Position numbers and translations under genes: made by a program. DNA of 64,000 nucleotides from Candidatus Omnitrophota bacterium (GTDB lineage: Bacteria > Omnitrophota > Gorgyraeia > Duberdicusellales > 4484-171). The notes beneath the pieces are model-generated. The model was given only the letters and a program-made list of their open reading frames with translations, searched no databases and had not been told where the DNA came from. Positions 1-63,587 of the stretch are shown in pieces (within the stretch, counting starts at the first letter, position 1; every line of letters starts with the position of its first letter). The stretch covers positions 4,781-68,780 of the forward strand of contig JAHISK010000055.1 in assembly GCA_018818105.1 (NCBI GenBank), written 5' to 3'.

Positions 1-3000
1 TTTCCTCCCTTGCTGTCATCGACATAATCCTGAGCCTGCGCGCTGCCGGCTAACATCCATTTAGCGTCTTGGTCAGGAACAACAATTAAAGCGGAAGGAT
101 TAAACTGTTTTAACGCGTAAGGAAGCGCGTCATAGGGAAGGTTTGCCTTTATCATCGCCTGAGTCGCGGCGTCAAAATGAAAAATCATTTCTTCTGACTT
201 AACGTCATATTCATATTTAGTAACACCTAAAGAATAAATTTTCTTATCGAAATTAACTGAAAGGTTAGCAAAAACAGGATGCGTTCGCATGAACGTTTGC
301 GCGAATTCTTTTTCGTTGGCTAAATTATCTTCGTGAGATTGTCCTAAATAAGCGCCAAACTCATGAATAAAAGAAAGGGATAATTGGAAGGGATTTTCTG
401 TTTCTTTTTCGTTGATAAACCATCCTTTACCGGGGATAAACGCGGAATGTAAATACTCAGACGGTCCCGCTCGTGTTTTACCGCTACGGCTTACATATTC
501 CAAGAAACTACTTACTTCGTTATGAGAATATTTAGTTAACAACCAATCTATCGCTAGCGTAAAATTCTTATTAATCTCATTAAAATCTACGATTTTTAAT
601 GAACTCCATTGGCTTGCCTTAGTATTGGCTTCTTTCTCAGCTACATTAAGCGCGACTCCCGGCATCGCCCGATTATAATCTATTGCCCTACCCATATATC
701 TCGATTCTGAAGCTGAAACATTTTCTATCCATTCTTGGTTCACTTCATAAACATTTTCTATCCATTCTTGGTTCACTTCATAAACATTTTCTATCCATTC
801 TTGGTTCACTTCATAATTATCTAATTCATTCTGCCAATACTCAACTTCTTCTTCCACCACCTCTGTTTCCGGTAAAACATTCCTGATGCCAATATTCTCT
901 TTCCTACTTCTCTCTTCCCTAAACTTATCCCCCATAATATTACGCAACCTGGAATAAATATAGGCCTGCCAATAATTTACCGGCTCAAAAGATACCGCGG
1001 CTTGAGCGTCCAACATAAACTCAACACTATCAATACCCTCATCAGAACAAAATATTATCCGGCCATGGCTGGCGCCAACACCTTTATGGCTATTACTGTT
1101 AAAGACTTCATTTAAATATGGAACTTCTTCCCAATCATTCTTTGAAACATCACTCCTATTACATTTGATTCGTATCAGCCCGCGTTCACTGTTATTCAAT
1201 TTAATATCGCTATCTGTTTTTATCTCATCCTTCAATACCTTAGAAATCAGCATATCCACAGCTATTTTTCTATTACTAGTTTCTAAGTATAATTCTGCTA
1301 CTTCCAAATCCCAAGAAACAGATTCTAGCGCTTCTCCATCTTGAAGAGTAGGTTTATAACTTATAGGATTTTGATGATCTTTATATACAAGAAAACCATC
1401 CTGACCCAATGAAAAAGATAATCGTCCTAAATATTTTTCGTCATCATAATATATTTTATAACACGCTACGCCTAAATCACAATCAACCTGCATAACTCCT
1501 ATGACATTTCTCCTATTATCCGCCTCAACATCAACGTCATCCTCCGCATCCTCTAAAGGTTTTCTTATCACACTACTGGCGCCTAAATTTATAATTATAT
1601 CCTCTGTATTAGTATATCCATAAACTTTTGCCCCAACGACAACCACATTTATTAACTCATCCCCATTGGAAACATTATACCTCTGAGGCGATGACATATA
1701 TTTCTCAATCTCAATCCATCCGTCTGGGCCTAGCTTATAATTAACATCCGCGTATACTCCTTTCTGGGAAATCATCTCCGAACATACACCAGACATATCC
1801 CGATTATCATAATCTGCCAACTTTACAGCTTCTCCCGGCCCCGCTTCGGCGCTACCAACAAAACTAAAAGCCCAATTAATAATACTCGCGATCTTCCCTA
1901 ATACCGAATTGGCCTTAGATTGTTTTTCCTCTTTCTCTCCAGCAAACACGCCTAACTTATAAAGCGCTTCTTCCTGAGAAACGACTCTAACCGCGTTACA
2001 CTTAACGCTGTTCCACATATTATCGTTATCACCATCTACCCTCATAAAATCTTCGGCTGTCCGTCCTTTTCTCTGGCTTAACATACTCATCGCGGCAGAA
2101 GGCCCATTATAAAAAGCATACGTCCAGAAATCTCTCTCTATCGCTGACATCCTTGAAACTTGCCCTTTACCTAAAATACGCTCAGCGTTTTTAACAAACT
2201 TCTCTCCTCTATAAACTAAAAACGCCGCTAAAATATCCAACGCTTCCTGCCCTGTCTTAAACTGCGACCCAGGTATATCTTTTGTGACCTGAACATCCTT
2301 ATCCAATAATCCTACAGCTTTAACTTCCCCTAACTCAACTTGAATGCTATCCAACCAATGATGCATACCGATCATATCGCTAATTTCGGCCCAATATTCG
2401 TTTTTATCGGCGAACTTATAATATCCTTTGGTATTCATACGCAGCCCAAACCCTTCACCTATCGCCGCTGAATAAAGAAACGCCGGCGATATTCTAGTCT
2501 CAAACCCTAACTTCTGAGATCTCTCATTAATTTTATCAGCGGCGTTAATAACCCATTGCGCCACGGCAAGTTCTTTAGGAGAATCTATCCATCCAAAAAT
2601 CTTTCTTACGCGATAATTATAAGAATCGCCTAACTCTTCATATATACGGCTGACTACTAAAGGACTATTTTCTGACAAACAAACCAGCACAGATTCAATA
2701 TTATTCAACAACGTAATTCTTTGCCCTCTTGAGACAATTTCTCGCGCGCTTATAACACCTTTACTTAATAACGTTTTTTTCCAGTCACTAACATTTTGTT
2801 TGTAAACTTTTAATAATTTCGCGACTGCTTCTTCACTCAACTGCTTAGCCAACTCCGGCCTAGCCTCAACTGTTCGCGCTAAAGATAAATATACTTGGTT
2901 GCTGCCATCTTCTAATACAGCTCTGTCGAGAAGACTAATCACCTGATCTTGACCATGTTTATCTATTAAATTATTCACGTCGGCGTTATCGTTTCTGTAC

Positions 3001-9000: not shown

Positions 9001-12000
9001 AAAAAATTAACAACCGGTATCAACAACGGTATTTCTACCCTCGCATCAGATTCTTCATCATTTTCATTATACCCCTTCTGAGGGTTACCATTTAGCAATT
9101 CGTTTATTCTATTATCCGGATCATCCTCTTTATCATTAACCCCATCATCTATTTTTCTTCCTCTTACATTTGCCATAGCCTCCTCATCAAGGTTTTCCGC
9201 TTTACCTCTAACCGCAATTTCTTTATCCTTACTTATTAACGCGTTACCTGTCCAAAGTTCTAAAAACTTATCAAACTCAACTATTTTAGTTTTTCCGTTA
9301 TCTAAATATATAACGTTGCCTTCACTATCTACCCCTAAAAAAGTCACAAAGTGATCATCAAAATGAGCGATAAACGGCCCAATTTCTACTAAGACAGCTA
9401 ATAACTCTTGTTTTTGTTCCGTGGTAAGATTTTCTGTATTAAACTTTTTGCCGGAAAGGTCTATTCCCAACTCTTTAGCGGCGTTAAACATGCCTAACAT
9501 AGATATAGAAAACGACACTTGGCCATCTTCACCAACAACCTCTTCTGTAAACTCTAAAAGTAAATCAACTAAAACAGCCGGTAATTGGTCAGCGCTAACG
9601 CCTAAATCGCCGCCATTAATAATAAGGAAAGCGGATAAGGCGTTTACAGCGCAGTTATATCTCTTATCACCGACTTCGATTTTAAGCGTACGGCTAAGTT
9701 TTATATAATCCAACTGCGCGGCAATTGCTTGCGATTCTGTAGGTTGAGATTCATGAATGAAAAGTAAAACTATAAACTCATCTATTTCTTCCCGCTTATA
9801 TCCCGCGGCGTCAAGAACTTCTCGAATTTGTGACATATCTATATTAAAAACAATACGCCCCTCTTCTGTACGATAAAACGGAGGCGAGTTATTGCTAAGC
9901 CCTGTGTTATAATAATACTCTTCTAACGCCGCCAGCATTGTGCACCAATCTAATAATACTACCTTTGATTCATAATCCGGGTCATCTATCGCCACTATCC
10001 CAATTTGGTCTCTTATCTTTTGCGAATCAGCTAAATGCGCGATTGCCCCCTCTTCTTCAGGTATAAAAGCCACATTATCCGGTACGGGAACTGTTAAATC
10101 CGTATCTTTAGGCAGACGCGGATTAGAATCTTTATCAAACATAGCCGCGACCAATTCCCCTCCTTTACTTAATCCCGCGACAACCGCGGTTAACGGAGAA
10201 AGTATACGCATTAACAACGACGCTTTATACGCTGGGCCATAATTAATGTAATCGCCAGCCGCCTGCATTTGTACAGAAGTAAATACACCCATGCCCTGTT
10301 TATACCCTGTTACTACTTCTAAATGCTTATAAAACAATCCTTCCCATATATCTAAAATCTCTTCTTTATCAAAAATACCTTCAGCAGATAATTTATCGTT
10401 TAACTCAGCCGGTCCGCTAAATTTGTTCCATCTACCTGCACCTTGACTGCTGTCTGAAGCGTCTAAAACAATCACGCCGCAAGCGCAAAGCTGTTCCCAC
10501 TGACCTCTTTTGATAAAATAATCCCTGGAAACAAACATGTTTTCCGTAACAACGTCAGCTATAGTTTTTAAAGTAACTATACCTAAAATACTTTTCAGCC
10601 GCGGATTACTCTTAATATTTTTATTAACTAATTGTTTAAGCTCGTTTGAAGCAGCCGCAATTCTTTCCTGGCTTTCAGGGGAAATACCGCCGGAAACCAA
10701 TGAACTCGAAAACTCGGTCTTAATCACAAAAGAATAATATAATATCGCGAAGTAAGGCGCGATCTTTTCTCTAATATCATAACTAAGTTCTGGGAACAAC
10801 TTCTCATCGCCTAAAGCAGTGGCCAAATTAAAATGTTTACCGTCTCTCTCTGCTATCTGCCCTAATACCCCTACATAATTTTCAATATCACTTACCGCCA
10901 CAGTAGACACTCCTAACTCGCATAATTTATAAGCTATATCGGAAAACACATCCTGATATCCCTGATAAATACCTGTCATATTAGTTCCAAACTCTCTATT
11001 CTCAGGATATACGTCTGAATCCATCATATAAGCAACCACGCTTTGCCCCCAGGCGCTATACAGCTGCCGCGGTTCATATTCTTCTTCCGCCCTCTTATCC
11101 ATATCGATAGAATATTCAGGAATTGTCCTGCCAAACTGGCGAAGAACATCTCTCATCTGCGGAGTAATACCAGGAAATACTTCATTCACTGTCTTAATAA
11201 CTGGCTGCCCGCGATCATTCAAATCAACATAACAGGCATATTCAGTTTTATCAAAAATAATTGGCATTCCCCGCGGCGCGGGTTTTGCCAGAGCACCGGC
11301 GACATCAGTTTGAGATTGACTAACCGTCTCCGTAACTGAAATAGCCGACTTTAACCTCTCAACATCAGGCCGAGGTTCAACTATAGCAAACTCGCTTATA
11401 TCTCTTCCAAAAAAGACGTATGTCTTAATTGAACTATTTCTGGTATTCATCAACACGAAATCATCCGCGGCGGCAACTTTATCAATGACAATGATCTCAC
11501 CAAAACTAAACCTTACTTCTTCTTTACCGTCAATAGTCACTGTCTTCTTTAAAACTTCTCTAACTTCTAAATTACCCCTGCTGGTTTCACCGGTAACCTG
11601 CCACATTCTTGATACACTTAAATCCCCAGGATACTTACTGTATCCATAGGCAGCGTTAGATATAAGGCTTCCTATATTAATATTCTTTTCTAAATTCAAC
11701 TCGGGTCTTAAATATCTGCTGACAACAGTGATAATCGGGTTTTCTTCTTCCTGATAAAAATCATAATACCCGCTATCAAAATCAGGATGAGCAATTACAC
11801 CCGCCGGAACCCCTCCTTCCAACACAGCGCTTCCCGGCCCGGTAAGAACTGTCCCATCGCGTAAGGTCATAATAAAATTCATTACCCATCTTCTTAAAGC
11901 ATCAAGCCAATCTTCTCCAAAAAACCCAAAATAACTGCCTGTTCCCCGCTTCTTACTGCCATTCTGAGATAATAATAACCGCGTTGAATCATAATAACTG

Positions 12001-15000
12001 CTGCCGACAGTATAACTAGGATTATACGGCTGCCCCGCGCTCATTAAAATGCCGGTTTTTTCTGGCTTATTCTTACTATCTTTATCGTCAAAACTTTCCG
12101 CTAAATATCTTTCAAAATTACTATCTACAAACTTAAGCATCCCTTCAAAATCAATCCAAGCAACTCCTGAGGCCGGTTTAAACTCTTTTGACTCAACGGT
12201 TTTAACTACCAATTTACCTTCACTGTCCTCTGTTAAATAACTGGTTTGTCCGCCATTAATACCTAACACTAACACTTTGCGCCCATTTATCTCAACGTAT
12301 GTACCGCCAATAATACCTGCTATTTTATCCGCCGGTATTTTCTCCTTCACAGGTCCTTCCTTCCCCGCTCTAAAAATAGTAATACCATCATCATCCACAG
12401 ACACAACCGCCGCTTCTATTAATACACCATCCTGACTTATAATTAACCGTGCCGGATTCTGAGCAAGAACATTTCTCAATTTCTTCCCCGCGGTTTCACT
12501 TAAAGCGACCGCGCAATATGTACCGTCAATTTCTAAACTGCTGTTAAATGTATTTTTACCCCTAACTCTTTCTTTATAATTCCGCGCTGCTTGTTTTAAA
12601 TCTTGCGTTTTCTCACTACCATTAATATCCCTGTACACAAACTCAAACTTCGCCGTTTCCCAAAGACTCAAAATAGCGGCAACTTTATCCACGCTTAACT
12701 CACCCTGCCCAACAGCCGCTAACAAAACATCCGCGTCTCTTAACCTAGCAGTTAAATCCTCTCGCGTAAGAACACCGCTAATATTCCATAGAATAAACTC
12801 TTGACCGGCTTTCCCTTCAACCACTCTAACTACACCGCTATTAATTAACGCAGTTAATTCATTTTCTGTAATACTAGTTTTGTCGCAAAAATATTCTTTA
12901 TCATAATATTCAGCATTCACATCTATCACCGTGTTATTAAAAAATAAATCTAATCTTTTACCTTCACCGCTACGAGCCGGCGGCGGGTTGTATTTCCATT
13001 CACCATTATGGTAAGCCATTTCAAACAAGGCGGTAAACAATTCCTGACCGCTGCCGCCAATAGATGACGACGCTTTCACAAATCTGTATTGGCCAAAATT
13101 CGAAGAATTCGAATCAACATCTAACACAAACATCGGAGCCGTAATTCCTTCATCCACAGCAGATGAAATCAAACCGCGCCAAAATCTATTTTCCGGACGA
13201 TTTTTTCTTTCATTTTCACTCATCACCCCTTTATCATTCGTACCCCATTTATAATGAATTCCGTCAATAGTTTCTTCATTCACATACAAATCCGCGGCCG
13301 TAGGATCTTCTACCTCTGCCGCGCTAATAAGCCAATCTGTCAATAGAGTAGTACAATAACTCTGAAAGAAGTTAACAAATACATAGCCCAAGGTATCCTT
13401 TAAATATGTTTCCGTAATACTCGGCTTTTCATACCCTGCCATCTCAAGCTCAGCATTTTCTTTAACAAGGCTTTCACGATCTCTAAAAATAATTTCCTGA
13501 CCGTTATTATTAGAATCTATCTTAACCATCATATCATTAATTAACGCCTGAACTAAAACCATAGCAAATATGCGTAAAGCGTCATTATCCATTTCTTCGG
13601 CTAAATACATACCCGCGCCCTGCACTAAACCGGCTTGAATAATTTCTCCCCACAACTGGCTTAACTGCGCACCGTTTGCCGCCTGCATAGAAAGATTTCC
13701 GCCCGCAGGTCCAACACTGTAAGATATCCTCGCGAAAGCGTTAGAAAACCTTTCACTCCAAGGCCCTTCCGATACAGATAAACCAGCTTTTTCAGTTCCT
13801 TTCGGCGGTTTTTGATCATTATCAGTAGAAGCCAACATATAATTATTAACAGCCTCGATACACCACCTCAGGCCCCAAATGCCCATTCGTAACACTTGCG
13901 CCAGAGCCGCCGGTAAATAACTTAAATAAGCAAAATTACCCGCGTTGCTAACACAGGCTTTTACTATTTCATCTAAAAATTCAATTAGCTGAGTTAAAAT
14001 CTCGGCTATTCCATTAAGTATCTCTGAGACGATTTTATATACCCCATCAATAATTTCTCCTACAACAGGAATCATCCGTAATATAGTCATTGCTATAGTT
14101 ATAATCCAGCTATCGCCTGACTGATATATCGAATCCATAAACCCATCACCAAACGCTTCCCACATACTATCCGGTTTATCGTTTTCCTCTTCCAACCTAT
14201 GATCGTTACTGCCAGCCTCAACCGCATCTGAAGCGCTATCATTATCAAACTTATGCTGTATGTTATATGTCATAGCAGCTTTAGTTCCGGCAACCACCGC
14301 CGAAAACAGCGCCGCGCACAACGCCCCCACTAAAGCCGCCATCGGCGCCCCTAATGTTCCCGCGCTATAAATGGTAACTACCACCGCGATAACAATCGCG
14401 ACAATTATAATAATTATTGTCCATACCCACCACATAAGACCTTTATCAACATCAATGTTTTCCTCTTCATAATCAATCATATCTTTATCACTTTGAACAC
14501 GCGTAGTTTCAGCGCTGGAAGAAACAAATCCGCCTTCCAAATATGAAATAAACGATAACGGAAACAGCACAACACCAAGACAAAGGACTATCGCTGTCTC
14601 TGCTAAATCACCAATTATTTCTCCTAAATCACCGCCAATAAAATCTTCTACGGCTTCACCCAAATCATCAAAATCAACACCTAAAAACGTAGAGCTTGTC
14701 TCCTGATTCGAATAAGTATCAATCTCCTGACTGCAAATAGCTCCGCCTATATCCATAAAAGTCTCAGTTATTACATCCTGAACTTGAGTAGTAGTTTTCT
14801 TCGTAATACCTAAAAACCCGCTCTCTGTCTGTTTTCCATAATAATGGTTATGAGCATTCATCCACATAGCACAAAGAACAAGCGTGCCGAAGAAATACTT
14901 AAACTCCTGAACCGACTGATACCACAAATGATCATTAGACATACTTCCCGGACGGTAATACATCATCGTCTCAACCGCGGATTTACGCGGCCCGTTAAAC

Positions 15001-18000: not shown

Positions 18001-21000
18001 CTAATTTTATCATCTGCCTCACCGGTAATCGCTTTTACTCCGGCAATGATTTCCGCCTCATTAGCTTTTATCTCATCTATAGAAAAATAATTATGCCCTT
18101 TAAGGGTTTTCGAATCAATAACAACTAAATTATAGTCACGCGATAAAAAATACTTAGTTTCCTTTTCTTGATAATCAACTAATCCGCCGGCATCATTATA
18201 CGTATACTCTATACTTTCTGAATAGGTAAACTCTCCTATATTACTCATTGCTTCCACTAACCCCATATTTAAATCCGCGGCATTATTTAAATTTAAATAC
18301 GGATTTGCCCCGGATAAAATTTGACTAAACGGTGTATGTTCTTCAATAACACCCCCGTCTTCTTCTTCAGAATTTACAAATTCAATAACTTCTGAATTAT
18401 TAAGCATATAACCAATCACTGCCTTAAAATCACTAATTGTCATATTTTTAATAGTTTCTTCAAAATCAGCAAATCCCGGATGAAAATCTTCTTTCACCTG
18501 AGCCAACATTGCCGGTAATTCATTTGCAAATCTCTGCAAACTTAAATCAATTTTGTTATAATTCTTTACATCCGGATCATCTGACAACTCTTCCACAAAT
18601 ACCTTATAACAATCTATATTATCAATTCCGGTTTGTCCTCCCGCTACCCACAATACATCCCCTTTCTGTTCAATTGCACCCAAACTAGTGCTTGACCACC
18701 TCACATTACGCCGAAACGGTTTACCTTCCGGCGCAAATTCTATCCCTAAATAAACCAAATATGATAACATATTAGTTATCTGTCTCGATAATTTGCTCCT
18801 AGTTAACAAATCTTTAACTTCCTGCGGCCAATTCGCCTCATCTTCAGGAAAAAACTGCTCTCCATTAAAATGCTCACTTACTCTAGCTGTCAACGCTAAA
18901 ACAATAGGCCCATAATCAATATTAAAGCTTAATTTTTTATTATCTATAATTGCTCCTAAATTATTAAACTGAACATATTTCCAAGTTTTAGCAATAAAAT
19001 CTGATTGCCATATACAAACATCAATTTTAAACTCTTCTTCTCCCGGCGTACCGCTCAAAAGATAAGTTTCCTGCAAAAAATCATGCGGACGCTCAACAAT
19101 TGAAACCATCTTCCCTCTACTATAATTCCTATCCCACATAAACTCTTGACCCAAAATATAACCTTCTTCTTTATTAATTCCCTGCTTCACTAAAAAATCT
19201 TTTACATAATCTAAATCACTTTGATCTGCCTGCGTACCTTCTTGAATTCCTCTTAACATTAAAAGTAAAAGATCTAAATTCCCCATATCTGTTCTTGACT
19301 GAAGACCTTCGTTATCCAACTCATTAAAAAAACAACTAAAATCAACGACATATAATTCACCATCAATAAAAATAAAAGCCGTAATATAACGCATATCATT
19401 TATTGAAATTTCATAGCTAAAATAATCATCCAGCCAATTTGACGTAGTATATCCCGGATCCATACCCCAAGCATCAGTAAATACAATATTCACATTTGAG
19501 CCAACCGCTCCGGCTTTTATATCTTTCATTTCAGGATTAGTAAGTTTTCTCGGTCCTGCTTCCGATTCCTTTACACTGCCGCGAGTTGCTAACCCTGTAC
19601 CCTGCCAATAACAAGTATCTCCCTCTTCAGTAGTAAAACGGTAAGAAATATTACCTTCATCAGTAGTAACCGTATCAGCAATGGCTTTAACTTCTTCGCC
19701 ATTACTTATATAGGTAAAAGCGCCTGTTTCTAAATTAACATCAACTACCCTGATATAATGCCCACGGCCATCAGCAAGAGTAACATGAGCTATAAATACA
19801 CCGTCTCGTGCTAACGTATCAGCAATATTTTCCAGATTTAAACCTGTAAATCCGTCTAAATCATACCCTAAAATACCCGCGTTTTCCTGTAGATTATCCA
19901 TAGTAGTCATGCCATCGCTGTCAATCAAAGGATTGGCGGCAACTGGTAAGTCTCCATTAGGAGTTAACCCCTCTAATATATAGGTAGCACAATTTGCATC
20001 ATTTACATTGAAAATAGTAGTTATAGGATTTATGGAAGTGCTTATAGGAAGAGTATCATTAACTGTATCATTAGTAGGCGGTCCGCGGGAACTAATACTA
20101 GTATAGGTAATCTGATTAAGAACCGTATCAGGATTTAAACCAAAGCTTCCCTCTGGACAATCATTATTTACTTCATTTAGATAGAAGAATAGAGTTGTTT
20201 GGTCGTTGGCAGGATTAACTGTATCAACAATATCAAAAACAATATCATTTTTTTGAGGAAGTTCGCTGGCAGGAGGACCATTACTAGGCATTATATTGTT
20301 ATATATATCAATTGGTTTTTTACTATCTGTGTTTTCTATTGTAAAAAGGCTATTTGTGTTCAATACTGGAGAATACCCTTGAGAAACCATATCATATTGA
20401 GAACCAGCATATTCCTGCTGATATCCGCCGATATCATCGCTGATAGGAACCTCTGATACACTCGCTCCCACACCGACTAAATTATCAACAATATCATCAT
20501 TATTTGAATTGGCCAATACGTCTTCATTTGCCGGCGCAATATCTTCATAAACTACTGATTCCGGCTCTACTGTAATAACAGGCACCTCTGTATCAGCATC
20601 AGCAACAATCTGCTCAGCCGCTTCCACAACACGCTGATCTTGGCAATAATAAAAATACGTTGTTAATACTTCTAAATAATCATTAATTACACCTTGATTT
20701 TGAGTTAAGACATTATCATTTGTAATAATACTACCATCAGAAACATCAGTATCACCAACAGTATCATCATTCTCTTCTATGCCAAATTCGCCCTGTTTTC
20801 CTCTAATCGGAGCCACAGGCAAAACCGCGACAAAAGGCTCAGAGGTCGGTAAAACTGCTGTGGTTGCCTGATTTTCTACATCAGAAACTTGTGTATCAAT
20901 CCCATAAATCCTAGCAACGAATTCCATAAAATTAGTTCGTTCCTGCGCGGAAAGGTCAATAACAACCGGGGACTGCTTAATTTGTGTAATCACAGCTTCC

Positions 21001-21515
21001 GCGGCTATTGTGCTAGGATCACCATTTAACTGTCTCATTAATCGCCACATAACCGTATCATCAGCACTTGCCGACGGAAGAAGAAGATTTATAATTCCCT
21101 GAAACAATCCTTTTAAACTGCTTTTATTCGTAGATGCCTTCGGCGAAAAACGTTCAGAAAGCTGTTTATATACTTGAAATAAAAGTTCGGGATTAGTCTT
21201 TAATTCTGTGATTTCTTCTTGCGTAAAGGGTAATTTAGATAATTCTTCAATGATTTTATCTATTGGAAGGAGATTCTTTAAATTCTGAATATTGGCCTTT
21301 GCAAGAAGAGGAATATCTAAACTGCCGCTTCTAGCCCAGGCAACATTAGATATAATAAGCGAAAAAGACAAAAATAACGCGATAATCCTCATCCAAGGTT
21401 TAACCCGCGGTTTCTGCAAATCGCTTACAGACAAAAAGCCGTCCTCTTGATTATTCTTATTAGAAAAATCTTGAGGATTTAAATTATTTATATTATTAGG
21501 TCTTCCCTCGCCCAT
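1..21515 (-). CDS. Giant secreted/membrane protein, partial (C-terminus beyond window start; >=7,170 codons in window). N-terminal signal peptide (MRIIALFLSFSLIISNVAWA), internal TM helices encoded ~14285-14460, C39-like papain-fold peptidase domain encoded ~9270-9720
   Basis: The ORF track lists no minus-strand ORF between 1 and 22657, only short antisense plus-strand ORFs. My own reverse-complement read from the ATG at 21515 (MGEGRPNNINNLNPQDF...) stays open over the N-terminal ~460 codons, and spot checks of the same phase at 3-122 and 4500-4540 show no stops; continuity across the remaining ~20 kb is inferred from the track, not read codon by codon. A GGAAG ribosome-binding site lies upstream. 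An alternative start at internal MRII... would give a classical signal peptide. The TM segment WWVWTIIIIIVAIVIAVVVTIYSAGTLGAPMAALVGALCAALFSAVVAG is read from 14285-14460, and the C39-like motifs ...KRYNCAVNALSAFL... and ...IAHFDDHFVTFLGVD...YLDNG... from 9270-9720. Confidence 0.7.
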   Translation of the reverse strand, partial: MGEGRPNNINNLNPQDFSNKNNQEDGFLSVSDLQKPRVKPWMRIIALFLSFSLIISNVAWARSGSLDIPLLAKANIQNLKNLLPIDKIIEELSKLPFTQEEITELKTNPELLFQVYKQLSERFSPKASTNKSSLKGLFQGIINLLLPSASADDTVMWRLMRQLNGDPSTIAAEAVITQIKQSPVVIDLSAQERTNFMEFVARIYGIDTQVSDVENQATTAVLPTSEPFVAVLPVAPIRGKQGEFGIEENDDTVGDTDVSDGSIITNDNVLTQNQGVINDYLEVLTTYFYYCQDQRVVEAAEQIVADADTEVPVITVEPESVVYEDIAPANEDVLANSNNDDIVDNLVGVGASVSEVPISDDIGGYQQEYAGSQYDMVSQGYSPVLNTNSLFTIENTDSKKPIDIYNNIMPSNGPPASELPQKNDIVFDIVDTVNPANDQTTLFFYLNEVNNDCPEGSFGLNPDTVLNQITYTSISSRGPPTNDTVNDTLPISTSINPITTIFNVNDANCATYILEGLTPNGDLPVAANPLIDSDGMTTMDNLQENAGILGYDLDGFTGLNLENIADTLARDGVFIAHVTLADGRGHYIRVVDVNLETGAFTYISNGEEVKAIADTVTTDEGNISYRFTTEEGDTCYWQGTGLATRGSVKESEAGPRKLTNPEMKDIKAGAVGSNVNIVFTDAWGMDPGYTTSNWLDDYFSYEISINDMRYITAFIFIDGELYVVDFSCFFNELDNEGLQSRTDMGNLDLLLLMLRGIQEGTQADQSDLDYVKDFLVKQGINKEEGYILGQEFMWDRNYSRGKMVSIVERPHDFLQETYLLSGTPGEEEFKIDVCIWQSDFIAKTWKYVQFNNLGAIIDNKKLSFNIDYGPIVLALTARVSEHFNGEQFFPEDEANWPQEVKDLLTRSKLSRQITNMLSYLVYLGIEFAPEGKPFRRNVRWSSTSLGAIEQKGDVLWVAGGQTGIDNIDCYKVFVEELSDDPDVKNYNKIDLSLQRFANELPAMLAQVKEDFHPGFADFEETIKNMTISDFKAVIGYMLNNSEVIEFVNSEEEDGGVIEEHTPFSQILSGANPYLNLNNAADLNMGLVEAMSNIGEFTYSESIEYTYNDAGGLVDYQEKETKYFLSRDYNLVVIDSKTLKGHNYFSIDEIKANEAEIIAGVKAITGEADDKIRNDMYANLGAADPDSTKPLLSCVVTEQSPMYMIMTDDYTKDITTEHFCHSDTHEYQYWSESQGAISARDVRDMYESSISDPEAGVCVGVSSSHTGGTGRKCGLWGSSTKVTRLRTYKSKRDNKIETKFLFNQYYSSTDEDEGEFEGQAFQITEIKSTWFSSPMAYIVAKVNGLDITTDIDNDNNMFNSDKDGGMVTLNYDLSLKGDNNEGCIRERNTTYDIKYVNFDDKFEVVSSRTKSEEFKEKKITLKEEFGNRGISQEDIDILTEEQIIEKPRDYNDYIVWNVVDSKDLEEKLIDAGVENREAILGAYNEVSQDKIVGVGSATWRIVEDSKYRRVGQGSKRGEKIASYKETIYVETEDQFGQKFNDSVVDLPEEHYIEKNHITFIYDEYGEYLSTKKDRYESKPYFGVNSDLLEMWNDDAVEMTNPDGTIPVLFVSDDSDGVAANDNALAVDSINKTETLPEEIDALEEKEQVLCDASGRGVLVTGYVLEEDGTKSIHHYAVTYDKAGKACYWEIGDGDFTSIKNMFVGQPVSSRRMTVQDIYIVSPVFEISPKFIDENAEEVTYMPYQSEYVLTDPADRPILVIGNEERTVNLQFEYNPPPYCSETDLGSYTFWYIDENTGKRYELGTYSESYDGSVYVRDGKITLQYELVLDSNGGTIKKVVGATTTLTIKHFYAVKYQYNQETQEYDTTYYELVGNYTKIDQAWNNLKQAFMLNPRSSDDGEEKSSEYNLGPYGTGAYNWISLVRFMHANHDRFVEEGLIDKYQGLEEYGPYGCKIFTHITESVLSTGNYRLVLSSTEGYVDEAVGRDPRWGTVSSIRWEILDVAGFSVMTWSWADKPYLRGNFDNLDEAVDWVTRQIADLAAHHAWYDTAKVDYYNKLLRAIENGDAQISIAPGGSGVEVKVGSEDVVFADEDEKFNNYTEEYCQAIAAGDSTAAANAWRGITERADRARLEEEKPSVQFGMLRNSFSGKEAAYYATIQTDDKERAHIAHNFVKFNGPRKSAVETMMYYRPGSMSNDHLWYQSVQEFKYFFGTLVLCAMWMNAHNHYYGKQTESGFLGITKKTTTQVQDVITETFMDIGGAICSQEIDTYSNQETSSTFLGVDFDDLGEAVEDFIGGDLGEIIGDLAETAIVLCLGVVLFPLSFISYLEGGFVSSSAETTRVQSDKDMIDYEEENIDVDKGLMWWVWTIIIIIVAIVIAVVVTIYSAGTLGAPMAALVGALCAALFSAVVAGTKAAMTYNIQHKFDNDSASDAVEAGSNDHRLEEENDKPDSMWEAFGDGFMDSIYQSGDSWIITIAMTILRMIPVVGEIIDGVYKIVSEILNGIAEILTQLIEFLDEIVKACVSNAGNFAYLSYLPAALAQVLRMGIWGLRWCIEAVNNYMLASTDNDQKPPKGTEKAGLSVSEGPWSERFSNAFARISYSVGPAGGNLSMQAANGAQLSQLWGEIIQAGLVQGAGMYLAEEMDNDALRIFAMVLVQALINDMMVKIDSNNNGQEIIFRDRESLVKENAELEMAGYEKPSITETYLKDTLGYVFVNFFQSYCTTLLTDWLISAAEVEDPTAADLYVNEETIDGIHYKWGTNDKGVMSENERKNRPENRFWRGLISSAVDEGITAPMFVLDVDSNSSNFGQYRFVKASSSIGGSGQELFTALFEMAYHNGEWKYNPPPARSGEGKRLDLFFNNTVIDVNAEYYDKEYFCDKTSITENELTALINSGVVRVVEGKAGQEFILWNISGVLTREDLTARLRDADVLLAAVGQGELSVDKVAAILSLWETAKFEFVYRDINGSEKTQDLKQAARNYKERVRGKNTFNSSLEIDGTYCAVALSETAGKKLRNVLAQNPARLIISQDGVLIEAAVVSVDDDGITIFRAGKEGPVKEKIPADKIAGIIGGTYVEINGRKVLVLGINGGQTSYLTEDSEGKLVVKTVESKEFKPASGVAWIDFEGMLKFVDSNFERYLAESFDDKDSKNKPEKTGILMSAGQPYNPSYTVGSSYYDSTRLLLSQNGSKKRGTGSYFGFFGEDWLDALRRWVMNFIMTLRDGTVLTGPGSAVLEGGVPAGVIAHPDFDSGYYDFYQEEENPIITVVSRYLRPELNLEKNINIGSLISNAAYGYSKYPGDLSVSRMWQVTGETSRGNLEVREVLKKTVTIDGKEEVRFSFGEIIVIDKVAAADDFVLMNTRNSSIKTYVFFGRDISEFAIVEPRPDVERLKSAISVTETVSQSQTDVAGALAKPAPRGMPIIFDKTEYACYVDLNDRGQPVIKTVNEVFPGITPQMRDVLRQFGRTIPEYSIDMDKRAEEEYEPRQLYSAWGQSVVAYMMDSDVYPENREFGTNMTGIYQGYQDVFSDIAYKLCELGVSTVAVSDIENYVGVLGQIAERDGKHFNLATALGDEKLFPELSYDIREKIAPYFAILYYSFVIKTEFSSSLVSGGISPESQERIAAASNELKQLVNKNIKSNPRLKSILGIVTLKTIADVVTENMFVSRDYFIKRGQWEQLCACGVIVLDASDSSQGAGRWNKFSGPAELNDKLSAEGIFDKEEILDIWEGLFYKHLEVVTGYKQGMGVFTSVQMQAAGDYINYGPAYKASLLMRILSPLTAVVAGLSKGGELVAAMFDKDSNPRLPKDTDLTVPVPDNVAFIPEEEGAIAHLADSQKIRDQIGIVAIDDPDYESKVVLLDWCTMLAALEEYYYNTGLSNNSPPFYRTEEGRIVFNIDMSQIREVLDAAGYKREEIDEFIVLLFIHESQPTESQAIAAQLDYIKLSRTLKIEVGDKRYNCAVNALSAFLIINGGDLGVSADQLPAVLVDLLLEFTEEVVGEDGQVSFSISMLGMFNAAKELGIDLSGKKFNTENLTTEQKQELLAVLVEIGPFIAHFDDHFVTFLGVDSEGNVIYLDNGKTKIVEFDKFLELWTGNALISKDKEIAVRGKAENLDEEAMANVRGRKIDDGVNDKEDDPDNRINELLNGNPQKGYNENDEESDARVEIPLLIPVVNFLPSKMRGTTQVIGPNSIESDLPSINDSSDIGDITNWAINNLNKLEGVNGDTYLESIVAYIDSIFGGQDSEITYHVSQVVDQGSFGDIVVGYLVEIAVQNINMMIGYSVSDGDELIDDFEQLVNDTNKIVDGFDEVETTDSVKQEKAKTVSVNVPKNDKKEDLKILKRVLNAVLLSRKGDYKFDVNTVIENDKGQSICSLVIFGEKMGRFYKLLAGSSFRESVYSDYSSKDRNGDSSKENLVGKNTSNKTENKDEKNSSENENEIMSTMLAQELVKAMVSTDNNQMINKAVCAIICFLNKLDDSCDNSGLLSSKPQENPNNKPLIIWAGSLEFPQGTNDVSCNGKTIAISGFQTENPGKLAKFVDSISKGVLSVEGAGNLEADQDDVAANSVDGSVGSKKIPFIQDKIVVVALLGGAAVSRIPQNLPAIAVNGETIKGVGGNPVIFVLLDKVYSENQKVLIDNLDIVYEKLQKIMAGLFINGPPGNSLCTKVDSQQSREFANVFILPSHENDNIVSSNAVNRISFLSYIIANVLKFESAPVKGEDLFVVVSKAMRDYLSMNPNVVLMPIYAVLGVDSNGVVTLVLSNSFGEDVQPVKAMEVSGGKYFSNESKIEYYVETTKETNFAIDIDGKLYIVKYMSDVRSPNSIGEYLAKYGNVRNGPRGIVPPEIRLPWIETSDKKIPASLIKQIGVNRFGLLVELFKDLDKACVFLENFAQVVEIIGVDLMKFVDEFLETAGSAIGSLEKILGRDIVDSAWEKDVKTYIVVLLDFDKFRDKFEELFERYPFGKKRVLNVIEKYGFGAFINIFYAEVEKDRQIIRDIAADIKGIEECYAYLMDIDNIFDNLGIPGLDKAQEILSHMPSLDNLIKSPFAEKEYKIYQLAVLLFYQNLTFRFSKEEYTALVDRILLFSHFSDSYEINHLFEMGIGAIQVYINFMQKFAVEAGLSIEEYDELSKGIFIALLSHEQAHSFISCHVDDAIHEFVAERVARQVIHNLNIFKLIENQIIIEAWEKVSLYGMYSVAKEGNSMVTGKYETAFAQLEWIESHPIDENTFSDSAVDIVRGYPNMKFGDFLRQLLITYRLRLNGFMLSVPKAYKEMNIIERIYSPVSYLMVSPDEISSILYWPIDCFYKKDNSFFRVNWEVTSGDPITEFNNNKEKAVGLLTKYGLVPEDIEFRYGTVAGVQLFINRVDDSSQPDKLIICCSPAVVEYLKQNFSGEELPVVLAAVILEEYLEKTGKPHLEAREVRMAFLAGYDKEITNKILKLESLAALEWMISGEDKMNSDPFKEGEKNSRSNANLPNPKDEHPFDKFSFGPGNFSSQICDPSFKPLLSDFQRNFLVAFFNLIEDFNESIGSGIGEFLTKDFGKGYNGHNLLSFLLLPQVYHVILDLSRVYDYSGNMGGGYGWPNILANPCSTDLCSTAGLEQGLIDNQVSDIQTGNNGNISGPVTFGNGTSTTFPSGTRYGDGSGVSNNSCQSSAISSQQEINTNNSSREQTADSRKPINISGLTIPTSPNKVESGSFYFSTHAQPESKVVNSFELTQLQEVLKITRDLSGPEKSSLHEAFAIWDEIAGENIKNTNGVEDVEDISGNTLKEAIDAKAKITFLACDMKEVMRILDPGVSYEYIDALTIGGARLGQGRDVKGKLIIVLLDQSIFAEDKFEYLMSALGHEFGGNVWFAIKDRVMEDKYIGNSALRRAYMEQLSFGQNCNNLRQLKSRLERRKKEVPSEWLSEIESMIAGVDERLKIEEKSFAVWKSQYVSIREKGGVSLPNQPVKDDSGDCTVGVLWDSFKDRMPTCFISSVAAGLFKGKDKKQRMISSEDINHVGFYGSAKEKVSENVFPITLGRESLGWASVVMSLKSPIDISGDEFVKVYVKFNSEKDKLGIPRARLMFFDDKWNRFDIVAASVKGELEGDCFVFDLKKLDIYRLFDFDKSRVVHIGLGIGDDSLSRGAYLGIEEGRKAMIEDLDCQVNIEKVVFLKQGDEKVGIPTIEGLLKEFEEYRNDNADVNNLIDKHGQDQVISLLDRAVLEDGSNQVYLSLARTVEARPELAKQLSEEAVAKLLKVYKQNVSDWKKTLLSKGVISAREIVSRGQRITLLNNIESVLVCLSENSPLVVSRIYEELGDSYNYRVRKIFGWIDSPKELAVAQWVINAADKINERSQKLGFETRISPAFLYSAAIGEGFGLRMNTKGYYKFADKNEYWAEISDMIGMHHWLDSIQVELGEVKAVGLLDKDVQVTKDIPGSQFKTGQEALDILAAFLVYRGEKFVKNAERILGKGQVSRMSAIERDFWTYAFYNGPSAAMSMLSQRKGRTAEDFMRVDGDNDNMWNSVKCNAVRVVSQEEALYKLGVFAGEKEEKQSKANSVLGKIASIINWAFSFVGSAEAGPGEAVKLADYDNRDMSGVCSEMISQKGVYADVNYKLGPDGWIEIEKYMSSPQRYNVSNGDELINVVVVGAKVYGYTNTEDIIINLGASSVIRKPLEDAEDDVDVEADNRRNVIGVMQVDCDLGVACYKIYYDDEKYLGRLSFSLGQDGFLVYKDHQNPISYKPTLQDGEALESVSWDLEVAELYLETSNRKIAVDMLISKVLKDEIKTDSDIKLNNSERGLIRIKCNRSDVSKNDWEEVPYLNEVFNSNSHKGVGASHGRIIFCSDEGIDSVEFMLDAQAAVSFEPVNYWQAYIYSRLRNIMGDKFREERSRKENIGIRNVLPETEVVEEEVEYWQNELDNYEVNQEWIENVYEVNQEWIENVYEVNQEWIENVSASESRYMGRAIDYNRAMPGVALNVAEKEANTKASQWSSLKIVDFNEINKNFTLAIDWLLTKYSHNEVSSFLEYVSRSGKTRAGPSEYLHSAFIPGKGWFINEKETENPFQLSLSFIHEFGAYLGQSHEDNLANEKEFAQTFMRTHPVFANLSVNFDKKIYSLGVTKYEYDVKSEEMIFHFDAATQAMIKANLPYDALPYALKQFNPSALIVVPDQDAKWMLAGSAQAQDYVDDSKGG
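717..824 (-). repeat. Perfect 3 x 36-bp tandem repeat inside the giant ORF, encoding (VYEVNQEWIENV) x3
   Basis: The unit aacattttctatccattcttggttcacttcata is repeated three times head-to-tail. The antisense ORF 683..886 shows the same periodicity. Confidence 0.9.
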
Positions 21516-21534: not shown

Positions 21535-21572
21535 TAAAAAAAAGCCGGGTTACCTTTTGAGGTAACCCGGCT
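21535..21572 (-). terminator. Intrinsic terminator / attenuator hairpin (perfect 12-bp stem AGCCGGGTTACC/GGTAACCCGGCT, loop UUUUGA, then U8) about 20 nt upstream of the giant-gene start codon
   Basis: Plus strand reads aaaaaaaagccgggttaccttttgaggtaacccggct. On the minus strand this is a hairpin followed by TTTTTTTT and then ATGCCGGAAGTAAAAAAGATATGGGC. Confidence 0.6.
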
Positions 21573-21599
21573 ATCCTGAATCAATTTTGTACCGAAAGA

Positions 21600-21740
21600 C
21601 GATAGATGTCCGTTCTCTACATCGCTCGGACGATAAACGTTCTTATACTCTCGTTTTTCGTCCTTCGTCTTACATCCTTCGTTACTAGGACCCGTGGCTT
21701 TGCGCCTCCCGATTACTCGAGATTTGCCATTTCTGAAAAA
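21600..21740 (-). ncRNA. Candidate c-di-GMP-I (GEMM) riboswitch aptamer in the 5' leader of the giant gene
   Basis: The minus-strand leader reads AAAUGGCAAAUCUCGA-GUAA-UCGGGAGGCGCAAAGCCACGGGUCC. This resembles the remembered Vc2 consensus GGCAAACC-stem-GNRA-stem-GGGACGCAAAGCC-nCGGG, including a 6-bp stem capped by a GNRA tetraloop. A terminator lies immediately downstream. Not run through a covariance model. Confidence 0.35.
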
Positions 21741-21777: not shown

Positions 21778-21806
21778 AATATACCACACTAATCTAATGT
21801 TTTCAA
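21778..21806 (-). promoter_or_regulatory. Sigma70-like promoter for the giant-gene leader (-35 TTGAAA, 17-nt spacer, extended -10 TGgTATATT) on the minus strand
   Basis: The reverse complement of 21761-21810 reads ttgcTTGAAAacattagattagtgTGgTATATTtaactac. Confidence 0.4.
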
Positions 21807-62390: not shown

Positions 62391-63587
62391 ATGTTATCTA
62401 TTAGGTTACATATGAAAAACGAAATAATAAGATTAAAAGAAGAACTGGAAAAAGCGCGTTGGCACCTATATATCTTTTACGAACTCACCAAAGCAATGCA
62501 CACAACCCTACATTTAGAAGAAATATCCTATATTATACTTACAGGATTAACCGCGCATCAAGGTCTTGCCTTTAACCGTGCCATACTTTTTCTTAGCGAC
62601 ACCACCACTAACACTATCAAAGGATTTATGGGAGTAGGTCCAATGGATAACCATGAAGCAACTGAAATCTGGCAGAATATAGAAGAAGAAAAAAAAGGTC
62701 TCTATGACTTAATAAAAACTTACCACCGCATAAAAGAAGGTAAAATAAAAGTTAAATTTATGGATTTTATTCAGTCCTTATCTTTCTCCCAATCAAAAGA
62801 AAGCGGATTTATTTCTAGCGCTCTTTGTGAAAAAGAACCACTTCACATAAAAAAAGACGATCCAAGAATACCCGAAACCGATCCCTTAAAGCGATTACTT
62901 CAGTTGGAAGAATTTCTTATCGCGCCATTATGGATAGAAGGCAGAAATAGCGGGTTGATTATTGTTGATAATTACGTCACAAAAAAACCAATCATAGAAG
63001 AAGACATAAAAATATTTAATATGTTTGTAGACCAATCTAGTGGGGCGATAAAAAATTCTCAATCCTTCGAAGACACTCTCATAAAAGCGCAAACCGACCC
63101 GCTAACAGGATTATGGAACTACAGGTATTTCCAGCGCCAGCTAGATGCCGCTATAAAAACAGCTAAAACTCAAAACCAAAATATCTCGGTAATGATGATA
63201 GATATTGATAACTTCAAGAAATTCAATGATACCTGCGGCCATATACACGGCAATTTAGCATTACAGGAAATAAGTAAAATCCTCAAAGATACCTGCCGTA
63301 AAATAGATACCCTTTGCCGATATGGCGGTGAAGAATTTTCTCTTATCCTGCCTCACTCAAGCAAAGAAAACGCCCATCTACTGGGAGAAAGAATCAGACA
63401 ATGCGTAGAAACAACTCCTATCCTAGATAACCACGCCTTCACAATAAGCATAGGAATTTCTTCTTTCCCGCAAGACGGAGACAACAAAGAAACCTTACTT
63501 CGAAAAGCCGACGAAGCCCTTTATGCGGCAAAAAGGAATGGCAAAAATCAAGTTGTTTTAGCTGATTTCATCCCCCAACCCATATAA
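62391..63587 (+). CDS. GAF-like sensor + GGDEF diguanylate cyclase (GGEEF active-site motif); alternative start at 62412
   Basis: ...RYGGEEFSLILP... and the inhibitory-site-like motif KIDTLCRYGG. Confidence 0.8.
   Translation: MLSIRLHMKNEIIRLKEELEKARWHLYIFYELTKAMHTTLHLEEISYIILTGLTAHQGLAFNRAILFLSDTTTNTIKGFMGVGPMDNHEATEIWQNIEEEKKGLYDLIKTYHRIKEGKIKVKFMDFIQSLSFSQSKESGFISSALCEKEPLHIKKDDPRIPETDPLKRLLQLEEFLIAPLWIEGRNSGLIIVDNYVTKKPIIEEDIKIFNMFVDQSSGAIKNSQSFEDTLIKAQTDPLTGLWNYRYFQRQLDAAIKTAKTQNQNISVMMIDIDNFKKFNDTCGHIHGNLALQEISKILKDTCRKIDTLCRYGGEEFSLILPHSSKENAHLLGERIRQCVETTPILDNHAFTISIGISSFPQDGDNKETLLRKADEALYAAKRNGKNQVVLADFIPQPI

Follow-up and report, generated by a model that had tools for sequence, protein, structure and literature searches.

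Giant genes are a recognised feature of the phylum Omnitrophota, yet they are functionally opaque: it is not known when they are expressed, how their products are exported or whether such a product acts as one chain. West-Roberts et al. (2023, 10.1101/2023.11.21.568195) described 46 "giant" genes of more than 30,000 aa, with Archaeovorin and Dockerin types, and found that most Omnitrophota giants possess a divergent SecA_DEAD/SecA preprotein-binding domain. In the same work C39 domains were observed near signal peptides, many transmembrane (TM) helices were noted, self-cleavage was proposed, and signalling by cyclic di-GMP (c-di-GMP) was suspected from PilZ genes located downstream of the giant genes and from GGDEF domains within them (10.1101/2023.11.21.568195). 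Among Omnitrophota proteins of at least 10,000 aa, a signal peptide combined with TM helices is the second commonest topology (38.9%), the PF03412 group forms one of the two largest architecture clusters, and 80% of the proteins are sequence singletons, 15% are Pfam-dark and 17% possess short strict tandem repeats (10.64898/2026.06.07.730766). Here we analyse a gene of this kind, encoded on the minus strand at the beginning of a 64,000-nt stretch of a Candidatus Omnitrophota bacterium genome (GenBank assembly GCA_018818105.1, contig JAHISK010000055.1, positions 4,781 to 68,780), which we refer to as the window. We consider it rather probable that the window contains the first (5') half of a giant Omnitrophota gene spanning at least 40 kb, which would encode a Sec-targeted, membrane-anchored and largely extracytoplasmic protein with two C39-type domains, that the gene is controlled by an ON switch of the c-di-GMP-I riboswitch class, and that the product serves in attachment or attack, with the C39 domains cutting the protein itself or a partner.

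The visible part of the gene is the following:

3..21515, minus strand: N-terminal part of the giant open reading frame (ORF), 7,171 codons with zero stops and a uniform coding signal.

From the ATG at 21515 down to window position 3 this frame runs for 7,171 codons without a stop, and the remaining five frames contain 294-989 stops each over the same 21.5 kb. From the composition of the coding strand about 559 stops would be expected (log10 of the probability of finding none is about -253). GC content follows the order GC1>GC2>GC3 and codon position 1 is purine-rich in all 500-codon bins; since the bias is present in every bin, the whole stretch is coding. The original prediction of a single uninterrupted ORF that leaves the window is thereby borne out, including the regions in which in-frame stops or frameshifts might have revealed several genes. 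On the source contig (ENA ERZ27247128, k141_1760481, 92,032 bp) the gene call starts at the same ATG and comprises 13,326 aa, i.e. the gene is at least 40 kb long and continues for at least 6,155 codons past window position 1. A fuller contig had been proposed as the way to the 3' end; it extended the gene, but the gene call stops exactly where the contig does (52054 + 39978 = 92032), so that the gene is larger still and incomplete.

In its general properties the locus agrees well with the described giants. It shares with them the phylum (assigned from synteny, see below), an undivided ORF that exceeds 13,000 aa, a signal at the N-terminus followed by TM helices, a C39-like domain near the signal peptide and another one internally, mostly unannotatable unique sequence, and a short tandem repeat. 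With at least 13,326 aa the product also lies above the limit of at least 10,000 aa used by Nielsen & Lui. The combination of huge extracytoplasmic regions flanking internal TM helices with a protease domain had been regarded as an unusual architecture, a view that has to be abandoned, as a signal peptide and TM helices with C39 are already documented as typical of Omnitrophota giants. Thus, the giant C39 protein with signal peptide and TM helices is of a known kind, and this gene is a sequence-unique member of it. In contrast to the described giants, no SecA_DEAD, glycosyl-transferase/hydrolase, methyltransferase, NUDIX, dockerin or TSP3 domain was found in the visible 7,171 aa. Neither described type is recognisable in this half: instead of the Archaeovorin domain set, the C39-like peptidase is the sole detectable domain, and the features of the Dockerin type are missing, with no dockerin/TSP3 matches and no internal repeats.

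The new element of the gene is its head, a c-di-GMP-I riboswitch, predicted to be an ON switch, that is common to other long ORFs and that would provide a direct regulatory mechanism for a giant gene. It consists of three features:

21778..21806, minus strand: sigma-70-like promoter, TTGAAA, 17-nt spacer and TG-extended TATATT (consensus scan, 10/12 matches with the TG; a pattern match only).
21558..21738, minus strand: c-di-GMP-I riboswitch aptamer (RF01051; 54.7 bits in Infernal/Rfam against a gathering score of 35).
21535..21572, minus strand: intrinsic terminator serving as expression platform, with a 13-bp stem including 8 G-C pairs, the loop UCAA and U8 (terminator scan; hairpin 21572-21543).

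Riboswitch or attenuator control had been suspected from the letters, and the aptamer at 21558-21738 together with the terminator substantiates this. The RF01051 match has E=6e-8 over the whole window, spans model positions 1-87 of 87, and c-di-GMP-I is the only Rfam family above threshold anywhere in the window. In the aptamer, P1 forms a hairpin closed by a GUAA tetraloop, and helix P2 contains a self-folding insertion of ~111 nt (21577-21687). The junction sequences GGCAAA and CGCAAAGCC, like the 3' strand GGGUUACC, are present and align to the consensus at posterior probability "*"; the ligand-contact nucleotides are presumably the equivalents of Vc2 G20, A47 and C92 in the numbering of the published Vc2 structures.

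The 5' arm of the terminator, AGCCGGGUUACC, is the 3' strand of the aptamer helix P2, with 12 nt in common. The unconstrained minimum-energy fold of the full leader is the terminator state, in the leader devoid of the terminator 3' arm the same strand closes P2, and a full leader in which P2 is enforced lies +17.2 kcal/mol higher in energy. The terminator cannot be that of the upstream gene, which is divergent, and the ATG of the giant gene is located 20 nt past the U-tract. By its sequence and predicted folding, the leader qualifies as an authentic riboswitch of the c-di-GMP-I class whose aptamer helix P2 and terminator exclude each other. The strand shared between the terminator 5' arm and P2 implies an ON switch, in which the ligand-stabilised P2 would act as an anti-terminator. 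Transcription would start ~250 nt upstream of the giant gene, from the predicted promoter, which lies ~40 nt upstream of the aptamer. An array of ~5.5 tandem copies of the 11-nt unit ATATCATAAC[A/G] (gene strand; window 21851-21909) precedes this promoter by 45-100 nt and separates it from the RAYT gene, which is divergent. It could be a regulator-binding array, and is not present upstream of the two related aptamers described below. The term "riboswitch" has 0 occurrences in both 10.1101/2023.11.21.568195 and 10.64898/2026.06.07.730766, and no link between a riboswitch and an Omnitrophota giant gene was found in the searchable literature.

A candidate source of the ligand is encoded in the window itself:

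62391..63587, plus strand: GAF-GGDEF diguanylate cyclase gene, context outside the operon (Pfam GGDEF 164 bits, plus GAF).

The GGEEF active site and the RxxD inhibitory I-site of this enzyme are intact, which suggests that the organism makes the ligand; the genome appears to encode the capacity to do so, with this cyclase as a possible source.

A scan of JGI metagenomes with the 33-nt aptamer core revealed two contigs of Ga0265294 (L004 and L005), an accession prefix that appears in a municipal-landfill study (PMC10076291). No match to the core was found in IMG/VR. The two contigs share with the window only ~45 nt that are 96-98% identical (core 21688-21728), and each contains a riboswitch match of clan CL00126. 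In L005 Rfam mis-pairs P2, the true 3' strand AGGAUAGCCGGGUU being located ~134 nt downstream, and L004 exhibits one G.U to A-U change in P2. The L004 match carries the Rfam label c-di-GMP-I-GGC (RF03167, 59.4 vs 59), which we did not take as an indication of a variant ligand, as the sequence has CGCAAAGCC as in the standard class while the GGC consensus is CGCGAA. Each contig also has a terminator overlapping the P2 3' strand, with forced P2 costing +7.3 (L004) and +7.5 (L005) kcal/mol relative to the more stable terminator state, and TTGACA/TTGATT ... TATATA elements are seen by eye ahead of both aptamers.

The ORFs downstream of these two riboswitches run off their contigs, that of L005 having a length of at least 2,292 aa and that of L004 one of at least 265 aa. 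Their first ~100 residues are homologous to each other and to the giant protein (BLASTP E=3e-14 for L004 against L005, and E=8e-4 over 118 aa for L004 against the giant). Past this leader the three bodies are unrelated, and those of L004 and L005 are Pfam-dark. A profile of the three leaders (alignment A1) gave no further match even at E<=10. Judging from these alignments, the head composed of the riboswitch and the leader peptide precedes at least three different long ORFs. The neighbours of the L005 ORF, a 660-aa signal-peptide protein (7361-9343, minus strand) and an ORF cut off by the contig end after at least 874 aa (10301-12922, plus strand), are both Pfam-dark as well. In the giant protein the leader includes two features:

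21393..21515, minus strand: N-terminal 41-residue extension before the hydrophobic segment, a portion of the leader common to L004 and L005 (alignment A1).
21333..21392, minus strand: signal peptide or signal anchor MRIIALFLSFSLIISNVAWA, residues 42-61 (translation; hydropathy 1.76).

A signal peptide had been read at the ATG 21515; the hydrophobic segment does exist, but it occupies residues 42-61. It was called from the translation and hydropathy, is flanked by basic residues on its N-terminal side and ends with A-W-A. The leaders of L004 and L005 have Ile at the position of Met42 of the giant, so the true start lies upstream of the hydrophobic segment, and the signal, as aligned, bears an N-terminal extension of 25-41 residues. 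At NCBI a different start is given for a fragment of the same gene (P0001, ABII25_08080), namely a TTG at ~21584, 23 codons upstream of ATG 21515. Translation from there would include the aptamer P2 3' strand and the terminator hairpin, and this start has probably been mis-called.

Beyond the leader, the only recognisable domains of the visible protein are two of peptidase type:

9216..9668, minus strand: C39-like papain-fold cysteine peptidase domain 2, residues ~3950-4100, with Cys3955, His4055 and Asp4072/Asn4073 (Pfam, homology, profile, AlphaFold2 and Foldseek).
19641..20003, minus strand: C39-like domain 1, residues ~505-625, with Cys509 in NCATY and His586 in GHYIR, followed by ISNG (a less secure assignment than domain 2).

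Domain 2 matches PF03412 with 20.8 bits (E=3.6e-4) over residues 4005-4098, profile positions 46-131. The original prediction had made its C39-like call dependent on a peptidase-profile match, and such a match is present, although it remains under the gathering threshold of 22 bits. An exhaustive HMMER search with residues 3801-5000 against 1.84e9 representatives returned five proteins, one of which is the same gene. Three others, P0003, P0005 and P0006 (E=3e-7 to 5e-4), align to residues ~3952-4140 and are all PF03412-positive with 44-51 bits. A profile of these three external C39 domains alone had just two matches in the giant, one at 3954-4120 (55 bits) and the other at 533-623 (12.8 bits). 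For structural comparisons we used an alignment and profile of five sequences (A2), namely domains 1 and 2, P0003, P0005 and P0006. Against the PDB, the A2 profile retrieved the peptidase domain of PCAT1 (7n87, E=7e-6; 4ry2, E=6e-5) and the LahT double-glycine protease (6mpz, E=9e-5). An AlphaFold2 model based on the A2 alignment (pLDDT 82.5, pTM 0.82) predicts a papain-like fold, with the invariant Cys at a helix N-terminus and the His on the sheet; Cys3955 and His4055 are invariant in A2. The single-sequence model of the same region had a pLDDT of 55 and its fold search was meaningless, hence the alignment-based model was used instead. With the latter, Foldseek found 18 matches in the PDB at E<=1e-3, all of them C39 or papain-like, e.g. 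7n87 (E=1.2e-5), 9l5u (2e-5) and 6mpz (6e-5), as well as PCAT1 cryo-EM entries and CdiA-CT (8ssk). Homology, profile-to-PDB comparison and fold search therefore agree with the peptidase call made from Cys3955, His4055 and Asp4072, and we regard the sequence-based and model-based assignment of domain 2 as solid: it is a C39-like homolog with a papain fold, though no curated PF03412 member.

Domain 1 is collinear with domain 2 (BLASTP E=0.26), and the 12.8-bit match of the external-C39 profile to it corresponds to an i-E of 6e-6 in a two-sequence search. Columns that are invariant across the C39 alignment include N-C-A, H..H, N-G and W.G, and domain 1 has Ser at the position of the expected Asp. 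These similarities suggest, less strongly than for domain 2, that it is a second C39-like domain. No ABC transporter is fused to the C39 domain in the sequence. Among the relatives, P0003 (L006 10001-13664; GCA_016213925.1, JACQZH010000065.1) contains a signal peptide, UBA-like helical repeats and the PF03412-positive C39 domain, which is followed by I-R-G-G-R-G-G and then by a Gly/Ala-rich TM cluster, before the sequence leaves the contig. P0003 has the appearance of the start of a further very long gene, and its canonical double-glycine motif directly follows the peptidase.

A related motif follows the domain in the giant protein:

9153..9191, minus strand: motif LDEEAMANVRGRK conserved past the domain, residues 4109-4121, which is a candidate for cis-cleavage of the double-glycine type (R-G invariant in five aligned sequences).

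The R-G pair is kept ~30-45 residues past W-x-G-N in all five aligned sequences. The motif reads LNDLQMREIRGG-RGG in P0003, LVDLQMRQIRGG in P0006, LDLEGIKGIRGA in P0005, LDEEAMANVRGR in the giant (residues 4109-4120) and ...GLATRGS after domain 1; P0003 and P0006 can be described as L-x4-M-x2-I-R-G-G, and P0005 has I-R-G-A. Double-glycine leaders are the substrates of C39 peptidases, and the hydrophobic spacing of the motif (-4/-7/-12 from G-G) fits such leaders. The conserved R-G motif thus suggests a possible cis-cleavage.

The remaining features of the visible protein lie in a body of largely unassigned sequence:

14049..14594, minus strand: internal TM cluster, residues 2308-2489, with three strong and one to three weaker hydrophobic helices (Kyte-Doolittle segments 2.0-3.3).
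716..816, minus strand: perfect tandem repeat of 3.1 copies x 33 bp, YEVNQEWIENV x3, residues 6901-6933 (Tandem Repeats Finder).
9702..9938, minus strand: ~80-aa module (…LEEY…PP..YR…HESQxTE…), residues 3860-3938, common to another giant-gene fragment (HMMER E=2.5e-4 against 1.84e9 proteins).

The hydrophobic segments of the TM cluster are residues 2308-2326, 2364-2382, 2392-2410 and 2471-2489, with weaker ones as far as 2664, which gives 4-6 helices by hydropathy within residues 2308-2664. The helices originally read at 14285-14460 correspond to residues 2353-2411 and are confirmed, as is the locally elevated GC content (0.494 vs 0.381 for the ORF). The cluster has only weak compositional matches to membrane families (EI24, RTX N-terminal and tape-measure TM segments). 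A perfect tandem repeat had also been noted, and it is present, with a unit of 33 bp (11 aa) at 716-816 rather than 36 bp at 717-824; Tandem Repeats Finder scored it 202 with 100% matches. Because its copies are perfect, it is probably of recent origin. Apart from it, no internal divergent repeats were found in the protein.

Scans of the visible protein in 800-aa tiles that overlap one another (Pfam, NCBIfam, PHROGs) and a phmmer comparison with all sequences in the PDB gave nothing significant save the near-threshold Peptidase_C39 and the compositional TM matches. Word-indexed searches of 5.8e9 protein clusters returned no match at E<=1e-3 for residues 3701-4200, and only a fragment of the same protein for residues 1-1000, and the N-terminal 1,200 aa have no relative among 185,579 species representatives (GTDB). 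Several motifs were considered by eye. SLT/lytic-transglycosylase motifs at residues ~6330-6510 were dismissed, being unsupported by Pfam or PDB searches at E<=10. The sole HExxH of the visible protein (ALLSHEQAHSF, residues 5135-5139, window 6099-6113) has no metallopeptidase family match in Pfam. Other "hydrophobic helix + HE" motifs occur near residues ~3921, ~5841 and ~7051, with no metallopeptidase family detected. The ~80-aa module is found twice in P0004 (BLASTP E=6e-9 and 2e-6). P0004 is an internal giant-gene fragment that fills an entire 7.3-kb contig of a metagenome-assembled genome (MAG; L008 1-7278; GCA_026387385.1, JAPLLU010000009.1) and contains SecA_DEAD, SecA_PP_bind, RHS repeats and ~15 hydrophobic segments.

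Together these features allow us to propose how the gene may work. Without c-di-GMP the terminator would form and the 40-kb gene would stay untranscribed. When c-di-GMP rises, e.g. through GGDEF enzymes like the one in the window, the bound aptamer would hold the P2 strand, the terminator would not form, and RNA polymerase would read through. The protein would then be exported via its extended N-terminal signal, and the TM cluster at residues ~2300-2500 would serve as its anchor. If other giants of the phylum are taken as a guide (V. archaeovorus, the predation hypothesis), its role at the surface may be to attach to a host or prey cell or to attack it. Most likely, the C39-like domains would cut their own polypeptide or a partner at double-glycine-like sites, e.g. 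V-R-G-R ~45 residues past the domain.

A number of observations weigh against this proposal or limit its reach. For about 95% of the visible protein neither a homologue nor a domain was found, which leaves analogy as the basis for its function, and the SecA_DEAD, glycosyl-hydrolase/transferase and dockerin domains on which the predation model is based were not found in residues 1-7171. No type II secretion system, pilus or PilZ genes are present in the 42 kb upstream. By hydropathy the number of helices may vary between four and six, so that C39 domain 2 could lie on either side of the membrane. At position -1, occupied by Gly in double-glycine sites, the motif V-R-G-R of the giant shows Arg instead, and the protein contains 8 h..h.GG motifs against 3.2+/-1.9 expected, a weak enrichment. 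As for the riboswitch, L004 and L005 were found with the aptamer itself as the query, so that the 3/3 association is not an unbiased one. No riboswitch was found upstream of the C39 relatives P0003 and P0006, and the locus of Candidatus Omnitrophota bacterium bin140, the nearest genome of the phylum, with the same neighbourhood, has neither a giant gene nor a riboswitch; control by a riboswitch is hence not a general rule. Binding of the ligand, anti-termination, export, cleavage and the part played in attachment or predation are all predictions.

Of the other explanations, the one that survives best makes processing the main point and overlaps with the proposal above, with which it is compatible: the ORF may encode a polyprotein precursor that the C39-like peptidases cut into many smaller, separately acting secreted or membrane proteins. 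The idea was put forward for Omnitrophota giants by West-Roberts et al. (10.1101/2023.11.21.568195). Here it agrees with the presence of two C39-like domains with a catalytic Cys and His in each, with a motif resembling double-glycine leaders conserved past every domain, and with a body devoid of repeats or a common fold signature, as would fit a string of unrelated modules. The same deviation from G-G and the weak motif enrichment mentioned above count against it, domain 1 has Ser for the expected Asp, and cleavage is predicted only. On balance we hold this possibility as tentative.

The papain-like domains could alternatively be delivered toxins rather than processing enzymes, in a polymorphic-toxin-like effector with a conserved secretion head and a variable body. 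Among the profile and fold matches there are indeed 9l5u, a papain-like toxin with its immunity protein (E=2e-5, TM 0.72), and CdiA-CT from Citrobacter (8ssk/8ssm), the conserved leader is common to three loci with unrelated bodies, and the module-sharing relative P0004 has RHS repeats. In sequence and fold, however, the best matches are to PCAT1 and LahT, both C39 peptidases of the double-glycine type, and the homologues score above the Pfam threshold for C39. Moreover, toxin domains are normally C-terminal, while those of the giant lie at ~4% and ~30% of its known length, no immunity-like small gene is visible, and no filamentous haemagglutinin, Rhs, PAAR or VENN markers were found in the Pfam/NCBIfam scans. 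We therefore consider the toxin interpretation improbable.

The genomic neighbourhood has to be considered in connection with a third alternative. The flanking genes, of bacterial housekeeping and efflux function, encode two AcrB proteins, a TolC-like outer-membrane factor with OEP domains, an HlyD-type membrane-fusion protein, a WD40 protein, a RAYT-like Y1 transposase, MnmE, FolE, PurH, EF-G, QueA and the GAF-GGDEF protein. The 1,109-aa AcrB is 73% identical to the product of a gene on CP070797.1 (Candidatus Omnitrophota bacterium bin140), with which the window shares a synteny of seven genes, AcrB-AcrB-HTH-TolC-HlyD-WD40-RAYT. On the basis of this synteny and the AcrB identity, the giant gene sits in an Omnitrophota genome. 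In bin140 an ordinary 639-aa gene follows the conserved block, which suggests that the giant gene is a lineage-specific addition and that the efflux genes are not its dedicated partners. An adhesin of the type I secretion system (RTX or LapA type), exported by the adjacent TolC/HlyD genes, might nevertheless be suspected, given that the genes for an HlyD-family membrane-fusion protein and a TolC-like OEP protein lie 2-6 kb upstream and that LapA is the paradigm of c-di-GMP control of giant adhesins. Against this, the neighbours form a resistance-nodulation-division (RND) efflux set (two AcrB) without an ABC exporter, bin140 possesses the same set although it lacks a giant gene, and a divergent RAYT gene as well as a WD40 gene lie between the giant and the efflux genes. 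The protein itself has an N-terminal Sec-type signal and internal TM helices, and neither RTX, Ig-like nor other repeats were found in its visible part. This interpretation is very unlikely and we reject it.

Least likely of all, and rejected outright, is an artefact, i.e. an assembly chimera or a decaying or non-coding open frame: the data do come from a metagenomic short-read assembly, the gene is split over several contigs in the NCBI MAG and the last 8 residues of P0001 diverge, but the MAG fragments P0001 and P0002, from another assembly, are 100% identical to residues 1-1053 and 1074-4197 of the giant (4,177 residues in independent agreement, which argues against chimera and frameshift), the probability of finding no stop is ~1e-253 with a codon-position bias even over all bins, and the gene has its own promoter, riboswitch and terminator directly ahead of its start.

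Several other features of the neighbourhood may be mentioned. The RAYT-like IS200/Y1-transposase gene (22012-22617, plus strand) is divergent to the giant gene and occupies the same position in bin140 (L003 19028-19579); a perfect palindrome with a 13-bp stem, TGTAGGGAACGGTCGCGACCGTTCCCTACA, is located at 22320-22349 inside its reading frame. The TolC-like outer-membrane factor (25325-27397, minus strand) combines OEP domains with N-terminal TonB_C/TonB_2, an unusual fusion, and the same 690-aa protein is found in the NCBI MAG. Two adjacent ORFs of 666 and 1,048 aa (36781-38781 and 38760-41906, both minus strand) have no Pfam match. Small genes for four-helix-bundle proteins (23S_rRNA_IVP/bAvd) are scattered among the RND genes (L001 798-1187 and 5986-6342, i.e. 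window ~32652-33041 and 27497-27853, minus strand). Diversity-generating retroelements use bAvd proteins as accessory factors, but no reverse transcriptase was seen. The plus strand of the window contains 15,099 C and 8,656 G, and GC skew is ~-0.3 to -0.5 across the giant gene, because the coding strands are purine-rich and nearly all genes are on the minus strand.

Returning to the preferred interpretation, a riboswitch-controlled, membrane-anchored giant protein with C39-type domains, we can speculate on a broader scheme, which we offer as a conjecture of doubtful standing. In one or more Omnitrophota lineages, giant genes might be built on a reusable head, consisting of a c-di-GMP-I ON riboswitch with a large P2 insertion and an extended signal leader of ~100 aa, placed before interchangeable unrelated bodies that range from several kb to at least 40 kb. 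In such lineages c-di-GMP would be the direct transcriptional trigger for giant attachment or attack proteins, C39 would cut the product at double-glycine-like sites, and the cost of transcribing 40 kb would be spared unless a host-contact signal is received. Even for the present gene alone, the RNA sensor predicts transcription only at high c-di-GMP, and would turn the suspected link through PilZ and GGDEF into a direct mechanism. The C39-like model and the downstream motif provide a specific hypothesis, namely that Cys3955 acts at V-R-G-R (residues ~4117-4120). The leader common to three unrelated long ORFs could mark a family and help to find the starts of giant genes in fragmented metagenomes, and if riboswitch control turned out to be common, the expression state of giant genes would be predictable from metatranscriptomes.

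Comparison with better characterized systems outside the phylum places these features in perspective. The papain-like toxins 9l5u and Citrobacter rodentium CdiA-CT (8ssk/8ssm) resemble the giant in fold (Foldseek E=2e-5 to 6e-4) and in belonging to very large secreted proteins. In contrast to them, the domains of the giant are internal, no immunity gene or module of contact-dependent inhibition (CDI), Rhs or PAAR is seen, and the relatives are Pfam C39 proteins. The Lap systems operate post-translationally, via an inner-membrane receptor and a separate periplasmic protease, and involve export by a type I secretion system and repetitive adhesins. By analogy with LapA/LapG/LapD, c-di-GMP may govern a giant surface protein here as well, and a cysteine protease near the N-terminus would be part of the logic; unlike in Lap, the predicted control acts on transcription through RNA, the protease forms part of the same polypeptide, and repeats do not dominate the body. 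With the C39 domains of PCAT1, LahT and ComA the giant shares the papain-like fold, with the Cys at a helix N-terminus and the His on the beta-sheet (E ~1e-5, TM 0.64-0.67), and, with those of the peptidase-containing transporters (PCAT), a motif similar to double glycine nearby. While the PCAT domains are cytoplasmic and fused to an ABC transporter, those of the giant occur without one, are embedded twice in a giant protein that is predicted to be secreted or membrane-bound, and score below the Pfam threshold.

The closest regulatory parallel is the c-di-GMP-I ON riboswitch Bc2, which precedes the adhesin gene cbpA in Bacillus thuringiensis (PMC7423583); examples of c-di-GMP riboswitches from C. 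difficile and V. cholerae are reviewed elsewhere (PMC6366702). As in switches of the Bc2 type, a class I aptamer is followed by an intrinsic terminator, and high c-di-GMP would turn on a large surface protein, according to the logic of transition from the motile to the attached state. The differences lie in the host, an ultrasmall and probably host-dependent member of Omnitrophota, in the size of the regulated gene (at least 40 kb), in the P2 insertion of ~50-134 nt, and in the reuse of the aptamer core and the leader peptide before unrelated ORFs. From the described Omnitrophota giants, in turn, the gene is set apart by its predicted cis-control by a c-di-GMP-I riboswitch and by a leader peptide common to several loci, both of which are unmentioned in the two preprints.

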